The notes below the pieces were generated by a model that was not told where the DNA came from, made no database searches, and worked only from the letters and a program-made list of their open reading frames with translations. Below, piece after piece: positions 15,034 through 28,634 of a stretch of DNA of 64,000 nucleotides. Numbering within the stretch: the stretch's first letter is position 1; every line of letters begins with the position of its first letter. This DNA comes from a phage. The stretch lies in the NCBI GenBank assembly GCA_022897995.1, contig GCA_022897995.1_4763.1. One strand, given 5' to 3'. The translations under genes were made by a program, and so were the position numbers.

Positions 15034-17034
15034 TTATGCCTGGTTAGCTGGACCGATAATTTCGTCAAAATCAGCACCAGTTGCAACAGCAGTGAAATTG
15101 AGCATGATATAGTTGATCGATTTTGCTGGTTTGATGAACATGCTAGCAACAAATTCGTTACGATCAATTACATCCGGCGTGTTGTTCGTGGTGTCGCATT
15201 GTACTCGGAAGTCATAAATGCCACCCAGAGAGCGAATCGTGCTGAGATATTGCGATACCTCCATACGGAAGGAGGCGCGAGTAAAGTTATCGTTGTTTTC
15301 AAACAGTTTGTATTTGCTTGAATCACCGATATTCTTTTTCAGCATGTTAAACAGACGACGAACGTTAATGCGGTCAAACGGGCTAGGAACAGTCGTAGCG
15401 GTTTTATCACCCATCAGGATAAACCCTTCACCACCTGCACCGATTACCGGGTTAATTGCGGCTTGATACAGACGATCACGGTGTGCCTTGCGAGGCTCAA
15501 TAGCCAGCTTAACCACGTTCATGATCTGACCACGGTTATAACCTGCCGGACTCATCCACGGCTGGGATACAACATCAGTACGAGCACACAAGCCAGCAAT
15601 ATCAGCAGCCAACGGAACCCAACGGTTTACGTCGTTATATTTGTCATACTGATATTTGTAGTTACCATCAATAACCGCGTAAGTGGTATTAATGTTCATG
15701 TTGTTGTCTGAATAATTGCTCTTTCCTTCTCGCCATGCGATCAGATTATCGATTGCGGTAGTGACCGGAATATTAACAACAGTGCTACGCGGCGGAGAAA
15801 CCATCACTAAACAATCCTGACGCTCATCACCGATGGAAACAGCATGTTTCTGTACAGTGGAGAATGCATCACCTTCACCCGCACACGCACCAGCAATCAG
15901 CAGGTTTACATGAATAGATTCACGTTCAGCAAACAGATCCCAGCCTTTCATCATTGCGCCAATGAACGGATCATTACGATGGTCCTCGGTTGAGGCTTCG
16001 TTAGCAGACACACCACCGACCAAAGAGATGATACCACTGAAACCATTTACCCAACCCTGAGCGGTTGCATAGATGTACTGACTAGCACCACGAGCAAAGA
16101 AATCGTCCATATAGATAGAATTGCCATAAACGTCTTTATCCCCTTTCAGAGTAGACAGTACATAGGATTCTACCACAACACCACCTCGACGAACAATAAA
16201 CGCATACTGGTTATCATTCTGCGGTGCATATGGAATCAGGTTGCGTGCTGCGGTACGAGTTCCACCGAACGGATACATAGTTAATTCAGGTGCTGCCGCG
16301 CCACTGAACGCGCTACGTGCCAGAATTTCAACTTCCAGAGAGTTTCCGATCTCACCCGCATAGATTGCACTTACCGCTGGCATATCATACTTTTTGAGCT
16401 TAGTCAAAAATTCTTGATTGGTGATATTGGCGCGGGAAGTCTCCAGATCCGTTAAGAGAAGACCAGAATCGGTAACAATTTTAGAAATGGTAATTGCCGC
16501 ATTTGAGTTACCAGTACCGGAAGTGATTTCTACAGTGAAATTCCCAAGATTAGGATACACGCCAACGGATTTAGCCAGAGCAATGATTTTCCCGGTTGGG
16601 ATGAAAATACCTTTAATTTTACCTTCGGTATCAACTTTGGTTACTTTGCCAGCGGTTTCAACTTCCTGACGGTTGTATTTTACTTTAATCGAATCGCCTA
16701 CTTTGTAGTTAGAACCTTCGTTGGTAATATTAAATTCTACGTTACCAGCGAGTGTGGTAGAGTTTTTCGCTTTTTCTGTATTCAGTACGCGAACAACACG
16801 CAGGTCATTGCCATACTGGAGGAAGTTAGCCCCACTCATGAAATAGTCTGCGGTGTTATTATCCGGCTGACCAAATTTATTAACTAATTCAACTTCATTA
16901 GTTACTTGAACAATCTGGAAAGCTGGACCCCATTGGAATTTACCTACCAGTGCCGCGCGACCAGTCGCAGATTGCACAATGGTAGTGGAGAGAGTAGTTT
17001 CTTTCGTTTCGAAACCCGGTGATAATAGAGTCAT
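15034..17034 (-). CDS. 18: tail sheath protein gp18
   Basis: 666 aa; N-terminal MTLLSPGFETKETT and extended similarity to T4 gp18. Confidence 0.9.
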   Translation of the reverse strand: MTLLSPGFETKETTLSTTIVQSATGRAALVGKFQWGPAFQIVQVTNEVELVNKFGQPDNNTADYFMSGANFLQYGNDLRVVRVLNTEKAKNSTTLAGNVEFNITNEGSNYKVGDSIKVKYNRQEVETAGKVTKVDTEGKIKGIFIPTGKIIALAKSVGVYPNLGNFTVEITSGTGNSNAAITISKIVTDSGLLLTDLETSRANITNQEFLTKLKKYDMPAVSAIYAGEIGNSLEVEILARSAFSGAAAPELTMYPFGGTRTAARNLIPYAPQNDNQYAFIVRRGGVVVESYVLSTLKGDKDVYGNSIYMDDFFARGASQYIYATAQGWVNGFSGIISLVGGVSANEASTEDHRNDPFIGAMMKGWDLFAERESIHVNLLIAGACAGEGDAFSTVQKHAVSIGDERQDCLVMVSPPRSTVVNIPVTTAIDNLIAWREGKSNYSDNNMNINTTYAVIDGNYKYQYDKYNDVNRWVPLAADIAGLCARTDVVSQPWMSPAGYNRGQIMNVVKLAIEPRKAHRDRLYQAAINPVIGAGGEGFILMGDKTATTVPSPFDRINVRRLFNMLKKNIGDSSKYKLFENNDNFTRASFRMEVSQYLSTIRSLGGIYDFRVQCDTTNNTPDVIDRNEFVASMFIKPAKSINYIMLNFTAVATGADFDEIIGPANQA

Positions 17035-17065: not shown

Positions 17066-20379
<3,314 letters not shown>

Positions 20380-20392
20380 AATAAATTACCTC

Positions 20393-21256
20393 TTAAAATT
20401 CTCTTACAATACGTGGACCCGGTGGAATCGGTGCAACTGGTATTGGAATATCACTAGAATATGATTCTTTGATTGTTCCGTCCCATTCTTCTTGCTCAAC
20501 ATCACGTTTAACAACTTCATGATCCACTGATTCAAAATTACCGCTAGGATTTAATTCACGAGAATTGGCATGAAAATCAAGATAAATCGTTCTAATTTCC
20601 CCCTTAACGTCGGTAGCTGGAGGATAGATAAACCCGATAAATTCAAACATAATGGTCCATTCAAGACGGCGACGAGAAAACTTATCTTCGCCTACCTGTT
20701 CATCTGGGGTAATAGAACTAATTGTGACCTGAATATCTCGATCAATCCATACATCATTACCGTGTAGTTCTTTAATCTTACAGTTAAAATGAGGCTGGAA
20801 GTAAGGAAGAATCTGTTCAATTATCTGAAACATATCATCTTCGTTACGTGTATAAATCCCCAACTCGAAGGTAAACTTATATGGTACAGGGTTATATTGT
20901 GTCACACTCCTGATTCCATCAGCCGTATATTTTGGTACTGTCTTATTTGCAATATTGGTTTTAAAGTTCTGGGCGTATGTCATATCAATCAAAGAAAGAC
21001 ACATGCGCGGTAAAATAGTTTCTACCTTTGCTACGTCTTCCTCACTGGAGATATTGTTATATTTGTCCAGACTCATCATGAATTTTTCTTTCTTTGCGTA
21101 GGTGATAGGAACTTTAATAAAACGCTCACCGTCACTACGCACCCTTTTAATTTGTACGCCGGAGAATAAATTACCCAGCAATACAATATACCGTCTAATT
21201 GACGAATTATAGTGCCAACCGAACATTTGACCCCCTTGTTTATGAGTATTTATCAA
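20393..21256 (-). CDS. 15: tail sheath stabilizer and completion protein gp15
   Basis: 287 aa; ..[40 protein letters not shown].. matches T4 gp15. Confidence 0.85.
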
Positions 21257-21993
21257 AAATCGGCGAAAGGTGAACCCTTGCCATTAATAGGGTCAAACGG
21301 ATCAATAAAATCTTGTCCTTCGCTTTTAAATTGCTTATCTTCTTTGTATTGATCTAAGTTAATGTCTGTTAATCCATCAAGATTAGTGATCGGTGCAAGA
21401 TCCAGATCCGCGAACTCATCAACATTAATTCCCTCATTGCGTTGTAATTCTGGTCGCAATTCCTCGCCGCTATACACGAATTTCTCTGCAATAATTTTAC
21501 GCATGGCATTTTTGCCAGCCTGAAAAAACGGCTGATATGGCTCGACGTAATTGATTTCAAAGAGATCATTACTCATTGGAATATAAATCAAGTCACCTGA
21601 TTTTGGCTCTTGATCATCTACTTGATGCTTGAATAGGTTGGGGTTAACCGTAAAAGTTAGTTCATCATTGGCTTGATAACCGAAACTAGAGAAGAAGTTA
21701 CCAGCGCCTTCATACCCATCAAATGAGTTAATATAAGCCGCAAATTTCCATGCTTTAGTAAATTTGCTTTGAACATCCTCGCCAAAGATCATGTCTGGTT
21801 TGACAAATTCACGAGGGATGTAATATAATTCTACACCTCGCATCTGAATAGCTTCGGCGACCATAACGTCGGCTAACGTCTGAGTATTTGTATATTTGTG
21901 AAAATTCACATAAGGATTAAGAATCTCTGTTTGTCGTGTATTCTCATAATCCTTTTGCGATTCAAGGCGAGCAAAAAGAGTGTTGTTAAACAT
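21253..21993 (-). CDS. 14: neck protein gp14
   Basis: 246 aa; position between 13 and 15. Confidence 0.8.
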
Positions 21994-22029: not shown

Positions 22030-22962
22030 TCAAATCATGAGGATGCCGAACGGAGGATCTAATAATTCTAGTTCTTGTCGCAATTTCTCAATGTCGGCGC
22101 GTGCTTCTTCAATGATTCGGATACCATCAACAGTGACACCACCGGGCAATTGCAGACCTTGATGTTTAGCCATGATTGACCCCCAAACCTCCTTAGTGAA
22201 GGCGGTAGCCATATCTTTCACCCAACGGTTATTATATGCACCCTGTTTGTTTTCTCTAATTGGTCCCATTCCTGCCGAAATCCCGCTCAATCCTGCGGTT
22301 GGGTTATCATAAACGGCGCTAATCCCGCCAGCGGTAGAACATCCTCCCGCATGAGCATAGCCAGCAACCGCTCCCATCATATCAGGAACGTCTACATAGC
22401 TTTTAACATACAATTCAACTACAATGAGATCACCTTCTCGAAAATTACCAGTGATCTTAAGTTGTCCGTTTGCGCTATTATACCAATAATCTGGCAGCGG
22501 ATTGAGCATATTTTGCATAGTGGCTCGATAGCTCATAAGCTGTTCGAAATATCCTAGATCACCGCCCATTGCATTTGGACCATAAAATTTACTACAGCCA
22601 GATCCTAAACCGCCATTTACACCCGCTAAACCCAACAGAAAGTCAGTAAACCACGGATAAACGGCAGTACCATCCATCGTAGCCGCGCTACCTACGTTTG
22701 TTCGAATAATTTTAGTTACTGCGAATATCCCAGAGTCGCTTAAATCAAATACCCCGTGTTGCGCTTGCTCTGCACTAACACGAAATACTTTATATCCTTT
22801 ATTCACACCATCGAAATGATATTCCCCATAGAGTTCTAGTGCTCTCTGAATACAATCGTAAATCTGGTCTTCTGTGACTTCTACGTTAATTACTGGTGCG
22901 CCTAAACGACGTAGAATAGCGTCTTTTAGTTCTCTTGGGTTATTGGTTACATATCCTGACAT
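22030..22962 (-). CDS. 13: neck protein gp13
   Basis: 310 aa; position between wac and 14; length matches T4 gp13. Confidence 0.8.
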
Positions 22963-23008
22963 AATATCACCTATAAACGGAAAAGGGGCTTAACGCCCCT
23001 TTAATTTC

Positions 23009-24772
23009 TTATACCGGAGAAATTCCAAAGAGGAACTCTTTAATTTGTAGCGGTTGCGCTAATGCTTCTTCGGATACGCCCTTAATACGAATATCGATCC
23101 GGTCGCCCTTTTCAATATTTAGGAAAGCACTGGTAGAATAGCTAATTAATTCATCAGTTCCATAATGACCATTTCGTACCTCATGTACAATCTGACCATT
23201 TTTAGCAATACCGACTACGAAAGTAGCGTTATGTGTCGCATGTACAGAACAACGGAAAATACAACGGAATAAGCCTTTGTCGTTAACCGTAACAAGAGAT
23301 TCACTCTTAACCATTCCACGCACAGGAACTTCTGCGGTCATATCGTTTAGCGGGATTCCTTTGTATTGATCTTGTTCGTCGAGAGTAACATCAATCTGAG
23401 CGGTGTTTTTAAATGCACCAGCCGCCCACGCAACTTGGACCCATTCTCCGTGTTTGCGGAGATAGTGGAACCCATCATCAGGAACGTCTGTTACCTTGCT
23501 TGCATTTGACGTGCTCAATGCCTTAACAGTTTTCACGATCCCATCTTGTTCAAGCTGCGTGCTTCCTTCTGGATTGCCGTACATGTCGCTTGACAGCTTA
23601 ATAACCCCAGCGGTTAGACCAGAATCGCGATCGCCGATCATTTGCTCGATATCCTGTACGCTAGCTTCTAGTCGTCCCTGTGTATTTTCTACAATTTTTA
23701 GACGACCTGCGATAGTATGACGCTCACTATCAGTACCAACGGTGTTAGTTATTCGTGCAACCTCACCACGTAGGCCATCAGCACCACTAACACCGACAAT
23801 AGATTTAAGATCTACAAATTCCCGTTCTTGATTAGTCAATCGATAATCAATACTTCCAGCGGCTTGAGGATTGCCGATCTTATTTTCCAGAAGAGTTAAA
23901 CGAGGACGGATACCAGCGTCAACTCCGTTGACTTCATCATTAAGCTGTGTATAATCAGATTGTAGCTTAGTTACTTTAGTACCGATATCAGGAATTGATT
24001 CAAATAGAATCGCTTTCTTTACTTCCTGAACTTCGTTTGATATACTAGCGATATTGCGAGTGTTTGTGCGAAGACGAAGATAAACATTGTCATGTGTTGC
24101 TAGTGATGTGTCGCCTAGCTCGCTTCGCATTTTGTTAACTTGTTTTGTTAGCTCTCCAACGTCAGAATCTTGCCAGTCGTTTTCTAGTTGGTGGATTCGC
24201 TGACCGTGGTTGTTTAATGCTTCCGTATTCTGGATAACTCGATATTTGATACCGGAACCGGAACTACCTGGATCTGGGGAACCGTTGATATTGAAATTAG
24301 GGAAAGCGCCCAATTCTTGTTTGATGAAAGAAATATCATCATATATTGTTCGTGTGCTCGGATCTGCTGCCGGACGAACACCAATTTTCTTTCCTGTCTC
24401 CGCCAGTTCATCTACTGTGGTTTGTAATGTCCTTGAAGTTTCTCCTAAATTTTCAGACTCAACCTTTGCGATAGTCTGATTGACAATATCAATAATACTA
24501 CCATCAGCAACCGCGCCTAAAGTAGTTTTAATATCATTAACTGCTGTAACAACTTCGTTAACTTTTGTTACCGTTGTCTTAGAATTTTCATCCAGACGAA
24601 CAATATTTTCTTGAATCGCATAAGGGGCGCGGTTAAGCGTCCCCTCGTGTCCTGTTTCTGTGGTTGCTGCGCTTAGACATTCACCATTTTTAATCCAGCT
24701 AATAGAATGTTGTCCCTCTCCAGGGACACCATCGACGTTAGGGATCTTTCGAATGTTTAATTGTTCGATCAT
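23009..24772 (-). CDS. wac: fibritin (neck whiskers) with internal foldon-like motif and extra C-terminal domain
   Basis: 587 aa; long coiled-coil; foldon-like DGFHYLRKHGEWVQV about 140 aa before the C-terminus; T4 position between 12 and 13. Confidence 0.8.
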   Translation of the reverse strand: MIEQLNIRKIPNVDGVPGEGQHSISWIKNGECLSAATTETGHEGTLNRAPYAIQENIVRLDENSKTTVTKVNEVVTAVNDIKTTLGAVADGSIIDIVNQTIAKVESENLGETSRTLQTTVDELAETGKKIGVRPAADPSTRTIYDDISFIKQELGAFPNFNINGSPDPGSSGSGIKYRVIQNTEALNNHGQRIHQLENDWQDSDVGELTKQVNKMRSELGDTSLATHDNVYLRLRTNTRNIASISNEVQEVKKAILFESIPDIGTKVTKLQSDYTQLNDEVNGVDAGIRPRLTLLENKIGNPQAAGSIDYRLTNQEREFVDLKSIVGVSGADGLRGEVARITNTVGTDSERHTIAGRLKIVENTQGRLEASVQDIEQMIGDRDSGLTAGVIKLSSDMYGNPEGSTQLEQDGIVKTVKALSTSNASKVTDVPDDGFHYLRKHGEWVQVAWAAGAFKNTAQIDVTLDEQDQYKGIPLNDMTAEVPVRGMVKSESLVTVNDKGLFRCIFRCSVHATHNATFVVGIAKNGQIVHEVRNGHYGTDELISYSTSAFLNIEKGDRIDIRIKGVSEEALAQPLQIKEFLFGISPV

Positions 24773-26175
24773 TATTGTACCCTTATCATGTAGTTTAATG
24801 CAAGGCTTTTAACGCGAGTTTCGCCAGACGTTCTAACCTGTCTTGCGCTGTCAAAGTTAACAATACTACCCCAATCATCGCCGCCACCGTTTTTATAGTT
24901 CGTGCTCCATTGTCCTTGTGTAATTGTGAATGCCCCACCAGTCCATCCGCGCCAACGGTTAGCAACAGGAAAGTTACCTGTCATGTGTTGCATGGTGTCA
25001 TCTTGATATGTGCCATATCCACGGCCTGGGTCTAGTCCTCGACCGTGGTCGCATCCTCTAGCAACAAGCCCTCGCATATCGGGTAGAGCAAAGTTGTCTC
25101 CGCCGTCTCCGCCGTAAGTGAAACCGATTCGTGAAAATAATACTGGATATTGGTGTTTATTTAACCATTGACCGTTACAGATTTTGAATTGTGCGTGGTC
25201 GAAACTGTTAAATGCTGTAAGAATGATGCCACCAATAGGCATACAAAGACCATCCAGTTCATTTTTAATGATAAACTGGTTTCCGTCGCCTCCGCTATGA
25301 CGATAAACATCTCCGCTAACGACACCACCGCTTAGAGACAATACACGAGCATTTGCAGATAGCGCCGAGTTAGGCTCACCAGAACCTGGATTATCTGTTA
25401 GCTTAACAACACCGAATTGTCCAGTGGTTGCTTTAGTGTTTGCAAATTTTTGTGCTGATACTACTACTGTGTTGTCATTTCCGTCAATCATTTGTTGGGA
25501 TGACGCAATTTTAACAGTACCCGCCTGATTTTCATTTGCTCTTGCGTTGGAAAATGCATATGGGCTAACGGCAAATCCTTCTCTGATAGTCCCAGCAAGC
25601 GTTTGTTGGCTTGTCGCCAGTCTAACTAAACCCTCACGGGCTTCTGACGCGGTATTTTGCTCTGGAATCAATCCAGGAACAATCTGAGCAATAGCAGCGT
25701 GCATCTTTTTAGGCGTAACTGCCATAGTGTCGTCGCTACCGATTTTTGCCGCGTCCATAGAACAGATTTTAATTGTACCCTGTACGGTTTCCGTTGCCTT
25801 CTTCTTCGCGAATACGTGGGTTAATGTATCAGGACCAATTGCAATATTTGGAGTATCACCCATAGCTTCATCGTTATTAGCATAGCGAGTGATCCCTTTA
25901 ACAAATTTTGTTGCGTCCGGTCTTGACAGCTTAACAGCCAATGTTTTTGGGGTAACAATTTTAGTTCCATCCAACCCATCATCTACTTCTTTTTGAGTAG
26001 CAATTTCAGCAATACCCGCTGTTTCTTCGGTTGCCGTTGGAAGACCTGCAATAGCAAACCCCTGAATAGCGGCTAATGCCGCTTGTACATTTTTTATATT
26101 GCTAGGCCAATTTCCGGTAGGGTCAAACTTAACATACTGTGCATCGTCTTTTACGTGATTAATAGTGTTATTCAT
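24772..26175 (-). CDS. 12: short tail fiber protein gp12
   Basis: 467 aa; repeated ..TEETAGIAEIATQKE.. type N-terminal repeats; C-terminal collar-like ..FALPDMRGLVARG.. Confidence 0.85.
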   Translation of the reverse strand: MNNTINHVKDDAQYVKFDPTGNWPSNIKNVQAALAAIQGFAIAGLPTATEETAGIAEIATQKEVDDGLDGTKIVTPKTLAVKLSRPDATKFVKGITRYANNDEAMGDTPNIAIGPDTLTHVFAKKKATETVQGTIKICSMDAAKIGSDDTMAVTPKKMHAAIAQIVPGLIPEQNTASEAREGLVRLATSQQTLAGTIREGFAVSPYAFSNARANENQAGTVKIASSQQMIDGNDNTVVVSAQKFANTKATTGQFGVVKLTDNPGSGEPNSALSANARVLSLSGGVVSGDVYRHSGGDGNQFIIKNELDGLCMPIGGIILTAFNSFDHAQFKICNGQWLNKHQYPVLFSRIGFTYGGDGGDNFALPDMRGLVARGCDHGRGLDPGRGYGTYQDDTMQHMTGNFPVANRWRGWTGGAFTITQGQWSTNYKNGGGDDWGSIVNFDSARQVRTSGETRVKSLALNYMIRVQ

Positions 26176-26185
26176 AATTTACACC

Positions 26186-26830
26186 TTACGCAATACGCTT
26201 AAAATAAAATAGTGTTGAACCAAATTTTTCTTCCGTTCCCATTCTGGACCATGCACCATAACCATAACGAGCAGGGGAATTTATTTCCCCACGAACGCTA
26301 ATACCATATTTTTCTACGACCGTTGCTTCGTGTGCATTTGAATCAATATACTGAATCTCTATTTTATCATTACCAGTACCTTTCCGTTCAACTTTAGAGA
26401 ATAAGATACTTTTGTCTTTCAATTCAGTAAATTTTTCTGCAACTGCCTCACACAATGCAAGATTCGATGTTCCAACATTAACAACAAATGGATAACCCAA
26501 AACTTCAATTACAACTTTTTTCGCGGCTGGATCGTGTTTATTTGTTACCGTTCCAGTGAAGGACAGAGTTTCTATTTGTCCTGCCGCTTCCGGTGGAGTT
26601 GAATTTGTAGTTACCAATACATCACCAACATTAAGCATAGAAATGCTATACAAATCATCAATAGCTGATTGTACGTTATTAATAAAAGAACCTTTGCGAG
26701 ATTGGTCTACGTTTAATCCACCGATTGGGCGAATGTCACCAATAATGGGGTCTTTCGACCCCGGATCGTATGAAATGAATGCTGCGTCGCTAGAAAATAC
26801 GCTTGCTTTAGAACGTGTTTTAGAAATCAT
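26186..26830 (-). CDS. 11: baseplate wedge subunit and tail pin gp11
   Basis: 214 aa; synteny 10-11-12. Confidence 0.8.
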   Translation of the reverse strand: MISKTRSKASVFSSDAAFISYDPGSKDPIIGDIRPIGGLNVDQSRKGSFINNVQSAIDDLYSISMLNVGDVLVTTNSTPPEAAGQIETLSFTGTVTNKHDPAAKKVVIEVLGYPFVVNVGTSNLALCEAVAEKFTELKDKSILFSKVERKGTGNDKIEIQYIDSNAHEATVVEKYGISVRGEINSPARYGYGAWSRMGTEEKFGSTLFYFKRIA

Positions 26831-26831
26831 A

Positions 26832-28634
26832 TTAACCTACCCTTAACCAGCGATGAACGGTGCGATATGGAGGAAGAATACCCATCATTGATGGATCAGC
26901 ATTTCCAGAATTAACTTTTACGATATCCTCTCTATATTTCGTAAACGCTGGACCTGCCGCATCAGGATCAACTTGGCAGCCACCAATGATAATTGACCCT
27001 GTATCGTCTTTCACCAAAACACGATCGCTGGATTGTAATTCAGGAATCATATCTTTCTTGATTTGATAGGCAACTTCACCACCAGTACCACCAGCGGTGT
27101 GTGTAGGTTGTCCATGAATATCAAGATCGTTATTGTTTAATGCAAAATTCTGGTCGCTGGCATCGGAAGACCAACCAGCAAGAAATTCTCCTTCCGCATA
27201 CCGAACCCAGATACCAAACCCCATATAGGTCGCTGGGTTAGCTGGGTTATGTGCGTTTTCGTATATCGTGCCGACCGGATGGAAAATATCAAACAGTGAA
27301 TATATATCCATAATTCGACCTGAATACTCTTCTGCTGGACGAGTGTTTTTCTGGCTAGGATTCTGGAAGTCTGTATATTCAATTTGTTTTGTTAAATTAA
27401 CTTCGTCTTCATTATTGAGATAAATCTTGTCTGCTTTTTCTTTAATTCCGCCGACACCATCCCATTCTAATAGAGTTCCGATATCGTTATTAAACCAACG
27501 AATTGTTATAGTATCTCTATTGTCCAACGCTTTAGCTAATTTAATCCCTGTTACAATGCTATTCTCATCAAATACCAGTGAATAATCTTCTCCAGACTGT
27601 ACCCACTGACCGCCAGCAAGTGCGCAACTCTCTTCGGTTTCTCCGTCAGCACCTTCACAGACAAACGAAGGAAGATCAGCATCACCAGCTTTAATCATTT
27701 GAGTACCATTTATTAATAACTCAAATGAATTTGGGTTAATTATATCACGTTTACTAACGCCCAAATCAGCATTGGTAAATTCTTTTTTCTTCGATAAATC
27801 ACCCACCCACACTTCACCAGGAATAGTTTCGAGTGCTGTCATTCCGGTATCATATACTCTAATTGTGTGCGTGATATAACTAGATCGGAATGATGCAATC
27901 CCGTCCATATATGTAATAATTTGAACGGTGTCACCAGCCGAACAAGGAAAACGAAGTTTTATGCTTTTGCCATCAAGTTCAACAAGTGATCCATCCTCAC
28001 CGATTGAACCGTAGTTAGAGTCATTACTAAAAGACTTGCCATAATATAAAAGGTTTCCTCGATAATATACTTCAACATTTCGAGTGTTATATGTGTTAGA
28101 ACCAAATACATTAGGGAAATCTGTTTGCCCTTCTGTGGCAATATAAACTTCCTTAGCTACTGTGCTTAGATCAGACGTGGTGATCGTGTCAACTCGCTTG
28201 TTTTCGATATATTCCCAGCGTCCAGGCGCACAATAAACCAATTCAACATCCATGAAATCTTTATACAATTCTCGGTCGATTGGTGATCCTTTAATTGTAT
28301 CGCCTTGTGCTGGCTTAAGTGTTACGTTATGAGACGCCCAAGAGCGCCAAACATCACGAAGTTTAATTGTCTTGTTATAATCACCAACTCCACCTTTAGG
28401 AAGCTCTACCGACACCGCGTTGTTTGTTGTATTGATAGCCCACGCATCACCAAAATTAGGCTTTAATAATGGATCTGTGTGCGTTTTCCATGCACCGGAT
28501 GCGTGGGGGGTATCGCCATCCCCCAGCTTAGTATAAAGTTCAGAAAAGTTGTCGTTGATCTTTTGACCGCCTTTTCTTAGATAATCACCCGTACCGTCAT
28601 CTACAACGTTACCGATATTAATTAATTGTTTCAT
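26832..28634 (-). CDS. 10: baseplate wedge subunit and tail pin gp10
   Basis: 600 aa; N-terminus GNVVDDGTGDYLRKGGQKINDNF shared with gp9/gp12 N-termini as in T4. Confidence 0.85.
   Translation of the reverse strand: MKQLINIGNVVDDGTGDYLRKGGQKINDNFSELYTKLGDGDTPHASGAWKTHTDPLLKPNFGDAWAINTTNNAVSVELPKGGVGDYNKTIKLRDVWRSWASHNVTLKPAQGDTIKGSPIDRELYKDFMDVELVYCAPGRWEYIENKRVDTITTSDLSTVAKEVYIATEGQTDFPNVFGSNTYNTRNVEVYYRGNLLYYGKSFSNDSNYGSIGEDGSLVELDGKSIKLRFPCSAGDTVQIITYMDGIASFRSSYITHTIRVYDTGMTALETIPGEVWVGDLSKKKEFTNADLGVSKRDIINPNSFELLINGTQMIKAGDADLPSFVCEGADGETEESCALAGGQWVQSGEDYSLVFDENSIVTGIKLAKALDNRDTITIRWFNNDIGTLLEWDGVGGIKEKADKIYLNNEDEVNLTKQIEYTDFQNPSQKNTRPAEEYSGRIMDIYSLFDIFHPVGTIYENAHNPANPATYMGFGIWVRYAEGEFLAGWSSDASDQNFALNNNDLDIHGQPTHTAGGTGGEVAYQIKKDMIPELQSSDRVLVKDDTGSIIIGGCQVDPDAAGPAFTKYREDIVKVNSGNADPSMMGILPPYRTVHRWLRVG

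Follow-up and report, generated by a model that had tools for sequence, protein, structure and literature searches.

An internal foldon homologue and a predicted TNF/C1q-like head in the RB49-type fibritin of a Krischvirus phage

The neck whisker protein, or fibritin, encoded by the gene wac in a 64,000-nucleotide stretch of phage DNA (hereafter the window; GenBank assembly GCA_022897995.1, contig GCA_022897995.1_4763.1) carries a homologue of the T4 foldon in an internal position, at residues 425-451, followed by a 136-residue C-terminal domain that is predicted to fold as a TNF/C1q-like beta jelly roll. Fibritin is the protein from which the foldon is classically known, and in T4 it belongs to the apparatus that holds the tail fibres in their retracted state when conditions are unfavourable. 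On the reading favoured here with fair confidence, the whisker tip of RB49-type phages would combine a foldon hairpin with a TNF/C1q-like head, and the long tail fibre would be the most likely partner of this tip.

A foldon homologue inside an RB49-type fibritin

The gene wac occupies positions 23009..24772 on the minus strand and sits between gp12 and gp13 in the order of open reading frames (ORFs) of the window. Its 587-residue product is covered from residue 1 to residue 580 by PHROG 1056, "fibritin neck whisker" (E 5e-178), and phmmer aligned residues 7-429 with residues 6-436 of T4 fibritin (2bsg_A, E 5.9e-52); together with nucleotide identity and gene order, the ORF and these matches assign the protein to the fibritins of the RB49/JSE type. 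The DNA of wac matched 58 records, all of which (58/58) belong to the genus Krischvirus; it is 96.6-96.9% identical to JSE, LF73P4, KMB43 and their relatives and about 79% identical to the RB49/ECD7 group, and in protein alignment the identity is 97% to JSE and 78% to RB49. The N-terminal ~50 residues (24623..24772, minus strand), which align to the N-terminus of T4 fibritin and for which a neck-attachment role has been described (PMC3797505), show no amino-acid changes against six silent changes among ten JSE-like sequences. Residues 51-424 (23501..24622, minus strand) are homologous to the segmented coiled-coil shaft of T4, within one alignment to the solved T4 fibritin that continues through residue 429. 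The conserved N-terminus, the T4-homologous shaft and the position between genes 12 and 13 are those of a fibritin. The window copy lacks a Val-Glu pair after residue 106 (near 24454, minus strand), a 6-nucleotide in-frame deletion in the shaft; 9/9 other JSE-like fibritins have the pair, as do those of the RB49-like phages.

The shaft is followed by the foldon homologue (23420..23500, minus strand). Aligned without gaps, the 27-residue T4 foldon found its best match at residues 425-451 (SKVTDVPDDGFHYLRKHGEWVQVAWAA), with 10/27 identities and a BLOSUM62 score of 52; none of 20,000 protein shuffles reached this score (best-score mean 9.3, standard deviation 5.1, maximum 39). Residues 366-448 match Pfam Fibritin_C over model positions 2-91 of 93 (E 3.3e-24), a model that represents the C-terminal ~93 residues of T4 fibritin and includes the foldon; phmmer aligned residues 422-447 to T4 fibritin 455-480, and a tblastn query with residues 366-456 reached the foldon in more than 1,000 T4-like genomes. 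Searched by itself against the foldon chains of PDB, the short motif was not significant (E 0.2-1.4), so that the case for the foldon rests on collinearity and on the shuffle test. The signature residues of the foldon (Pro, Asp-Gly, Tyr, Arg-Lys and Gly-Glu-Trp-Val) are conserved, and AlphaFold2 places a beta-hairpin at residues 435-440 and 443-449, with a local predicted local distance difference test (pLDDT) score of ~60; an equivalent hairpin is present in the model of P0006, a distant fibritin described below. Judged by this sequence evidence, the motif at residues 425-451 is a genuine T4 foldon homologue in an internal position.

A foldon-like sequence about 140 residues before the C-terminus had been proposed in an earlier note on the window, and this proposal is confirmed: DVPDDGFHYLRKHGEWVQV lies at residues 430-447, the complete motif spans residues 425-451, and the 136 residues that follow it keep it away from the extreme C-terminus. 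The interval to which the note had attached its proposal, 23009..23437, corresponds to residues 446-587 and the stop codon; it covers the extra domain, whereas the foldon lies upstream, at 23420..23500. A comparison with the fibritins of related phages, suggested in the same note, recovered the full-length layout in every Krischvirus fibritin aligned. The layout had been treated as unusual, but it is that of the published "RB49-type" fibritin (PMC3797505, PMC9569957), and by its sequence the window protein is this known type, in a phage ~97% identical to JSE across the gene.

The foldon is also strongly constrained. Its core (VPDDG.HYLRK.GEWVQVA) shows no variation across seven Krischvirus fibritins, 20% of whose other positions differ, ten JSE-like genes show 10 silent changes versus 1 replacement in the foldon segment, and the peptide is 100% identical to that of JSE despite a DNA identity of only 86% over the same stretch; this pattern indicates strong purifying selection. 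The foldon codons (23429..23500, minus strand) are 86% identical at the DNA level to JSE, LF73P4, FL04 and MIZ4 and 98.6-100% identical to G2248 and KFS-EC; these identities mark a short patch of recombination in which all of the divergence is silent.

Fold and relatives of the C-terminal head

The C-terminal head comprises residues 452-587 (23012..23419, minus strand). Structures were predicted as monomers. The AlphaFold model of residues 425-587, built on a 5-sequence alignment, is all-beta, with ten strands after the hairpin and a mean pLDDT of 72.4; the other four models of this first run scored poorly (51-56), and the distant homologue P0006 was therefore modelled as well. The P0006 model (pLDDT 67.9) returned the same list of structural matches as the window head, with higher scores: EDA-A1 (12.9), TWEAK (12.8), cyanophage A4 (12.7) and BclA (12.0), and further PRD1 P5 (11.5) and the needle knob of Sf6 (9.2). 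Foldseek searches of predicted viral structures returned many phage proteins annotated as "C1q domain containing" or as collagen-repeat proteins, and the matches include a Morganella phage protein annotated as fibritin. Among Pfam families, C1q was the best sequence match, with head positions 58-118 aligned to model positions 48-107; the Pfam TNF family gave no match in the head. The predicted ten-strand jelly roll of ~130-140 residues corresponds to the C1q/TNF fold, and from the models the head very probably has this fold.

The close structural matches are all obligate trimers in which the jelly roll caps the distal end of a trimeric stalk; by analogy with these matches, and with the trimeric stalk of fibritin itself, the head would form a homotrimer on a threefold axis. 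The separate globular domain that the earlier note had expected after the foldon is thus recovered as a predicted all-beta domain and not as further coiled coil. The note's suggestion that the whiskers display a distal domain is likewise well supported, since placing a TNF/C1q-like head on a trimeric stalk is the usual way of building a distal binding domain. A different outcome applies to the Cys/His-containing region that the note had pointed out. The sequence concerned, GLFRCIFRCSVHATHNATFVVGIAKNGQIVHEV, is found at residues 500-532, but its Cys and His positions lack conservation: JK32 and the IMG locus L013 have Thr in place of C508, position 510 varies among His, Asn and Gln, and P0006 has neither Cys. 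A metal-binding or disulfide site is therefore unlikely, and this interpretation of the Cys/His cluster was rejected.

Heads of this type have a narrow distribution at the sequence level. A tblastn query with residues 448-587 matched 58 records, all of them Krischvirus, with 78-96% identity, which marks the domain as the RB49-type module. Run exhaustively with the head sequence against 1.84 billion cluster representatives, phmmer yielded two real clusters only, the RB49 type and P0006; two other matches were low-complexity repeats and were discarded. P0006 is a 591-residue distant fibritin with a degenerate foldon (VPNDDFYYVRNHANWIQV); it is 33% identical, and its head 29% identical. Word-indexed protein searches with the C-terminal region, with its alignment and with the 44RR-type head returned almost nothing, and a search of related loci for more diverse heads found close relatives only. 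Three apparent exceptions were rejected as artefacts. P0002, a 110-residue "head-only" protein, is a gene call from an internal Met after a 100-N scaffold gap inside wac (L026, 2829-2928); P0001 is a 110-residue call of the same kind, from an internal Met on a 927-nucleotide contig, and is probably an artefact too; and P0003, which resembled a foldon-terminated fibritin, comes from a chimeric metagenome contig (L025, 1888 nucleotides). These cases consequently do not show that Krischvirus fibritins occur naturally in a split or foldon-terminated form.

Beyond Krischvirus, a foldon-like hairpin followed by a beta-rich domain also occurs in the fibritins of Jiaodavirus (JD18 type; hairpin EQDGAYLRKRGEWF), of Yersinia phage MHG19 (hairpin APNDGMMYFRQNGAWV) and of the Aeromonas 44RR/Tulanevirus group (Biquartavirus/Tulanevirus; hairpin GRWYFENGAWK, with a degenerate foldon). 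The heads of the JD18 type, of MHG19 and of the 44RR type comprise 132-137 residues and end in ..I.P(A/V). Pairwise BLAST comparisons between the head types were marginal or negative. Profile-profile alignments with hhalign are collinear and scored 35.3 for Krischvirus against the JD18 type (shuffled-control maximum 19.0), 25.2 for Krischvirus against the 44RR type (maximum 21.2) and 35.8 for the JD18 type against the 44RR type (maximum 20.1), with 60 column-shuffled controls for each comparison and with shallow profiles. The Krischvirus, JD18-type and 44RR-type heads are, on these profile scores, probably divergent homologues and not unrelated replacements.

Candidate role of the whisker tip

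In the proposed arrangement, the coiled-coil shaft would lead into the foldon-type beta-hairpin (residues ~430-449) and from there into the ~136-residue jelly-roll domain (residues ~452-587). By analogy with the trimeric structural matches, three such domains would pack around the fibre axis and give the whisker a compact head at its tip; the foldon hairpins would form the neck below. Foldon and head may jointly be the C-terminal element from which the trimer begins to assemble and which brings the shaft into register; the gap between wac and gp13 is 46 nucleotides and no chaperone gene follows wac, which fits folding that is started intramolecularly by the protein's own C-terminus. The head, and not a bare foldon as in T4, would then be the surface that is offered to the partner of the whisker. 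This partner is most likely the long tail fibre; the whisker would then help to attach the fibres and hold them retracted, as it does in T4. The C-terminus of T4 fibritin touches the long tail fibre near the knee (PMC3797505), and by extension the head would most likely be the tail-fibre contact surface.

Several observations weigh against this assignment. The long-tail-fibre partner is assumed from T4; confidence in the structural models is moderate (pLDDT 72 and 68 for the best model of each run and 51-58 for the remaining four, with a 5-sequence alignment); and the match to Pfam C1q (PF00386) stays below threshold, with 14.5 bits (E 0.043) where the cut-off is 23.7, so that by sequence the head is not a member of the C1q family. 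Within the JSE clade, the ratio of replacement to silent changes is 22/24 in the head versus 40/116 in the rest of the protein (Fisher p = 0.006). Relative to RB49, the gp6-gp9, gp13-gp16 and gp19 proteins of the window phage are 95-99.6% identical, and one contiguous divergent block stands out, with identities of 89.5% for gp10, 73% for gp11, 73% for gp12 and 78% for wac. This block (~23131..28000, minus strand) takes in wac, gp12 (24772..26175), gp11 (26186..26830) and the 3' part of gp10 (26832..28634); at ~23131-23280, inside the 3' end of the head, identity of the DNA to RB49 and JK32 is again as high as in the flanks, and the block ends within the last ~40-90 codons of wac. The block resembles an exchangeable cassette for host interaction, with the whisker gene as one of its members. 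Between RB49 and JSE, gp34, gp35 and gp36 are 98, 98 and 95% identical (95-98% in all three of RB49, ECD7 and JSE) whereas fibritin is about 78% identical; the head, in other words, does not co-vary with the fibre knee, and fibritin appears to evolve with the host-facing gp11-gp12 cassette instead. These divergence patterns would fit an outward-facing ligand at least as well as a fibre contact.

The head might, then, be an outward-facing, lectin-like or ligand-binding module, and the whiskers auxiliary adhesins or sensors for glycans of the host surface or other environmental molecules, instead of or besides their tail-fibre role. Environmental sensing or receptor binding, the functions that the earlier note had suggested, would be a reasonable if less likely possibility of this kind. 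The close structural matches include the cell-binding domain of the short tail fibre of cyanophage A-1(L), the receptor-binding protein of lactococcal phage 1358 with N-acetylglucosamine, the receptor-binding domain of TM4 gp23, a TNF-like lectin of Photorhabdus, and C1q; the raised replacement-to-silent ratio of the head in the JSE clade and the location of wac in one divergent block with gp11 and the receptor-binding short tail fibre gp12, in genomes that are otherwise 95-99.6% identical, point in the same direction. Lineages have also swapped parts of the head: ECD7 combines an RB49-like shaft (99.5% identical) with a JSE-like head (93.5%). A 2026 preprint located k-mers that predict specificity for lipopolysaccharide sugars in gp12 and the adjacent fibritin gene. 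Yet purifying selection on the head shows in deep comparisons, with a ratio of nonsynonymous to synonymous substitution rates (dN/dS) of 0.07-0.18 (about 0.10 in the shaft), and it is ~80% conserved across the genus, without hypervariable loops like those of gp37/gp38. Fibritin type follows the core phylogeny, unlike adhesins (PMC3797505). Both the divergence and the k-mer signal are explicable by linkage to gp12, and the covariation of fibritin with the cassette may be mere linkage of this kind; a ligand-binding function of the head is considered rather unlikely.

TNF/C1q-like domains are very stable obligate trimers, and they nucleate the stalk in collagens and in BclA; the head could on this basis be a folding or stabilising cap only, which sets the register of the three chains without a partner of its own. 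Expanded C-terminal domains have indeed been described as necessary for trimerisation in non-T4 fibritins (PMC3797505). A 27-residue foldon suffices in T4, however, and with a good, constrained copy present here a second unit of 136 residues would be redundant; at least four fibritin lineages keep the head at a constant length, and the contacts in T4 are made by the C-terminal end (PMC3797505). These arguments make a pure cap improbable. Still harder to credit is a chance or convergent likeness to the foldon, with the C-terminal 140 residues merely extending the coiled coil, the outcome by which the earlier note would have judged its own proposal to fail. The weak database match of the 27-residue motif taken alone would agree with it; but the match is collinear with the full-length T4 fibritin alignment and lies inside Pfam Fibritin_C, its score was reached in 0/20,000 shuffles, the key foldon residues are kept, and the downstream region is predicted to be all-beta in two models. 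A tail-fibre contact made by a foldon-borne, TNF/C1q-like head is accordingly preferred among these explanations.

A more speculative evolutionary scenario, regarded as doubtful, would make the foldon neck and TNF/C1q-like head the ancestral and widespread tip of fibritins (RB49, JD18/MHG19 and 44RR types) and the bare foldon of T4 a derived truncation; the Krischvirus head would in that case be a ligand-binding sensor or adhesin that evolves with the gp11-gp12 cassette, and not merely a dock for the tail fibre. If a TNF/C1q-like head does stand behind the foldon, the fibritin "types" that have been called unrelated swaps may be one diverged module, and the published picture of episodic module replacement would change. 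The contact between the whisker and its partner in RB49-like phages would have to differ physically from that in T4, with a bearing on the control of adsorption to O-antigen strains by these phages, which are used in therapy collections; the head would also be a compact natural unit for trimerisation and display, usable like the foldon. The name of the gene is unaffected, and the practical gain is a better annotation.

Surroundings of wac and comparison with known systems

The gene order gp9-gp10-gp11-gp12-wac-gp13-gp14 is the same in the window, in JSE and in RB49. Upstream of wac, gp12 (24772..26175, minus strand) is a 467-residue ORF with a phage tail Collar domain (Pfam); downstream follow the neck genes gp13 (22030..22962) and gp14. 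Between the wac stop codon and gene 13, a consensus scan located a terminator-like hairpin (22982..23002, minus strand) with an 8-bp stem that includes five G-C pairs. The scan lists this site on the plus strand; since the stem is palindromic, the hairpin is equally present on the wac strand, where a T run comes after it. In phages G2248 and G2494 the annotation gives a terminator at this site.

The ORF of the large terminase, gp17 (17069..19885, minus strand), encodes 938 residues compared to 607 in JSE; a 331-residue insertion (18401..19393, minus strand) splits the Walker A motif (SRQLGK/ALDV...IPTHN/TTAV, with slashes at the borders of the insertion), contains a LAGLIDADG_3 domain and has His-Asn as its last two residues, with Thr as the next one. 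The insertion has the look of an intein that harbours a homing endonuclease. The DNA of the insertion occurs in only 12 phage records, at 95.6-99.6% identity, and these records belong to both the RB49-like and the JSE-like lineages, which suggests a mobile element. JSE has a homing endonuclease gene between gp14 and gp15, whereas at the corresponding junction of the window (20393..21993, minus strand; compare L001, 9567-10322) the two genes abut without an insert. ECD7, MIZ4 and probably KFS-EC have an extra gene directly after gp13, annotated in ECD7 and MIZ4 as a homing endonuclease. The tail sheath protein gp18 (15034..17034, minus strand) is 91.6% identical to RB49, with only 68% identity in a 60-residue stretch at residues ~120-180, a local patch of variation in a protein that is conserved elsewhere. 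In the distal tail-fibre protein gp37, mosaicism among RB49, ECD7 and JSE is strong, with 41-97% identity per 100-residue block and a closest relative that switches along the protein.

The extra C-terminal domain as such was already known. Letarov and Krisch (2013) listed the "RB49 type" as one of eight alternative fibritin C-termini and described the C-termini of non-T-even phages as alien sequences that replace the T4 domain (PMC3797505); the C-terminal moiety has been termed "alien" or "unrelated to T4 Wac" (PMC3797505, PMC9569957), and the larger C-terminus of the RB49 type is treated in the same papers and by Golomidova et al. RB49 fibritin was reported to need its expanded C-terminal domain sequences to fold and trimerise, and trimerisation with the small foldon alone was attributed to the T4 and JS98 fibritins only (PMC3797505). 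A literature search, which did not extend to the primary paper of 2005, found no paper that assigns a fold to the head or links it to C1q or TNF. The present analysis adds to this published picture that the foldon is retained and constrained, that the tip has a predicted TNF/C1q-like fold, that the layout is common to several of the "types", and that wac lies in the divergent gp10-gp12 cassette.

Among known systems, the closest is the RB49-type fibritin of RB49, JSE and other Krischvirus phages (Letarov et al. 2005; Letarov and Krisch 2013), which belongs to the same family and length class, has the same gene position and carries the same C-terminal module; the window copy differs from other JSE-like and RB49-like fibritins by the two missing shaft residues, and the account given here differs from the published one in that a foldon homologue is retained before the module and a TNF/C1q-like fold is assigned to it. 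In T4 fibritin, a homologous foldon sequence closes a homologous shaft, but there the foldon is terminal, whereas it is internal in the window fibritin. JS98-type fibritins, with two foldon motifs and a coiled-coil spacer between them (PMC3797505), offer a precedent for a non-terminal foldon motif, and their layout was seen here in VR25; their internal foldon is followed by coiled coil and a second foldon, that of the window fibritin by a globular beta domain. The fibritins of the JD18 type, of MHG19 and of the 44RR type share with the window protein a hairpin and a head of ~132-137 residues, with similarity that is absent or marginal at the BLAST level. Finally, the stalked TNF/C1q-like heads of C1q, EDA, BclA/ExsFA, cyanophages A-1(L) and A4, PRD1 P5 and the Sf6 knob show only 5-19% identity to the head described here, and the stalk differs, since the window fibritin has a coiled coil plus foldon instead of collagen.

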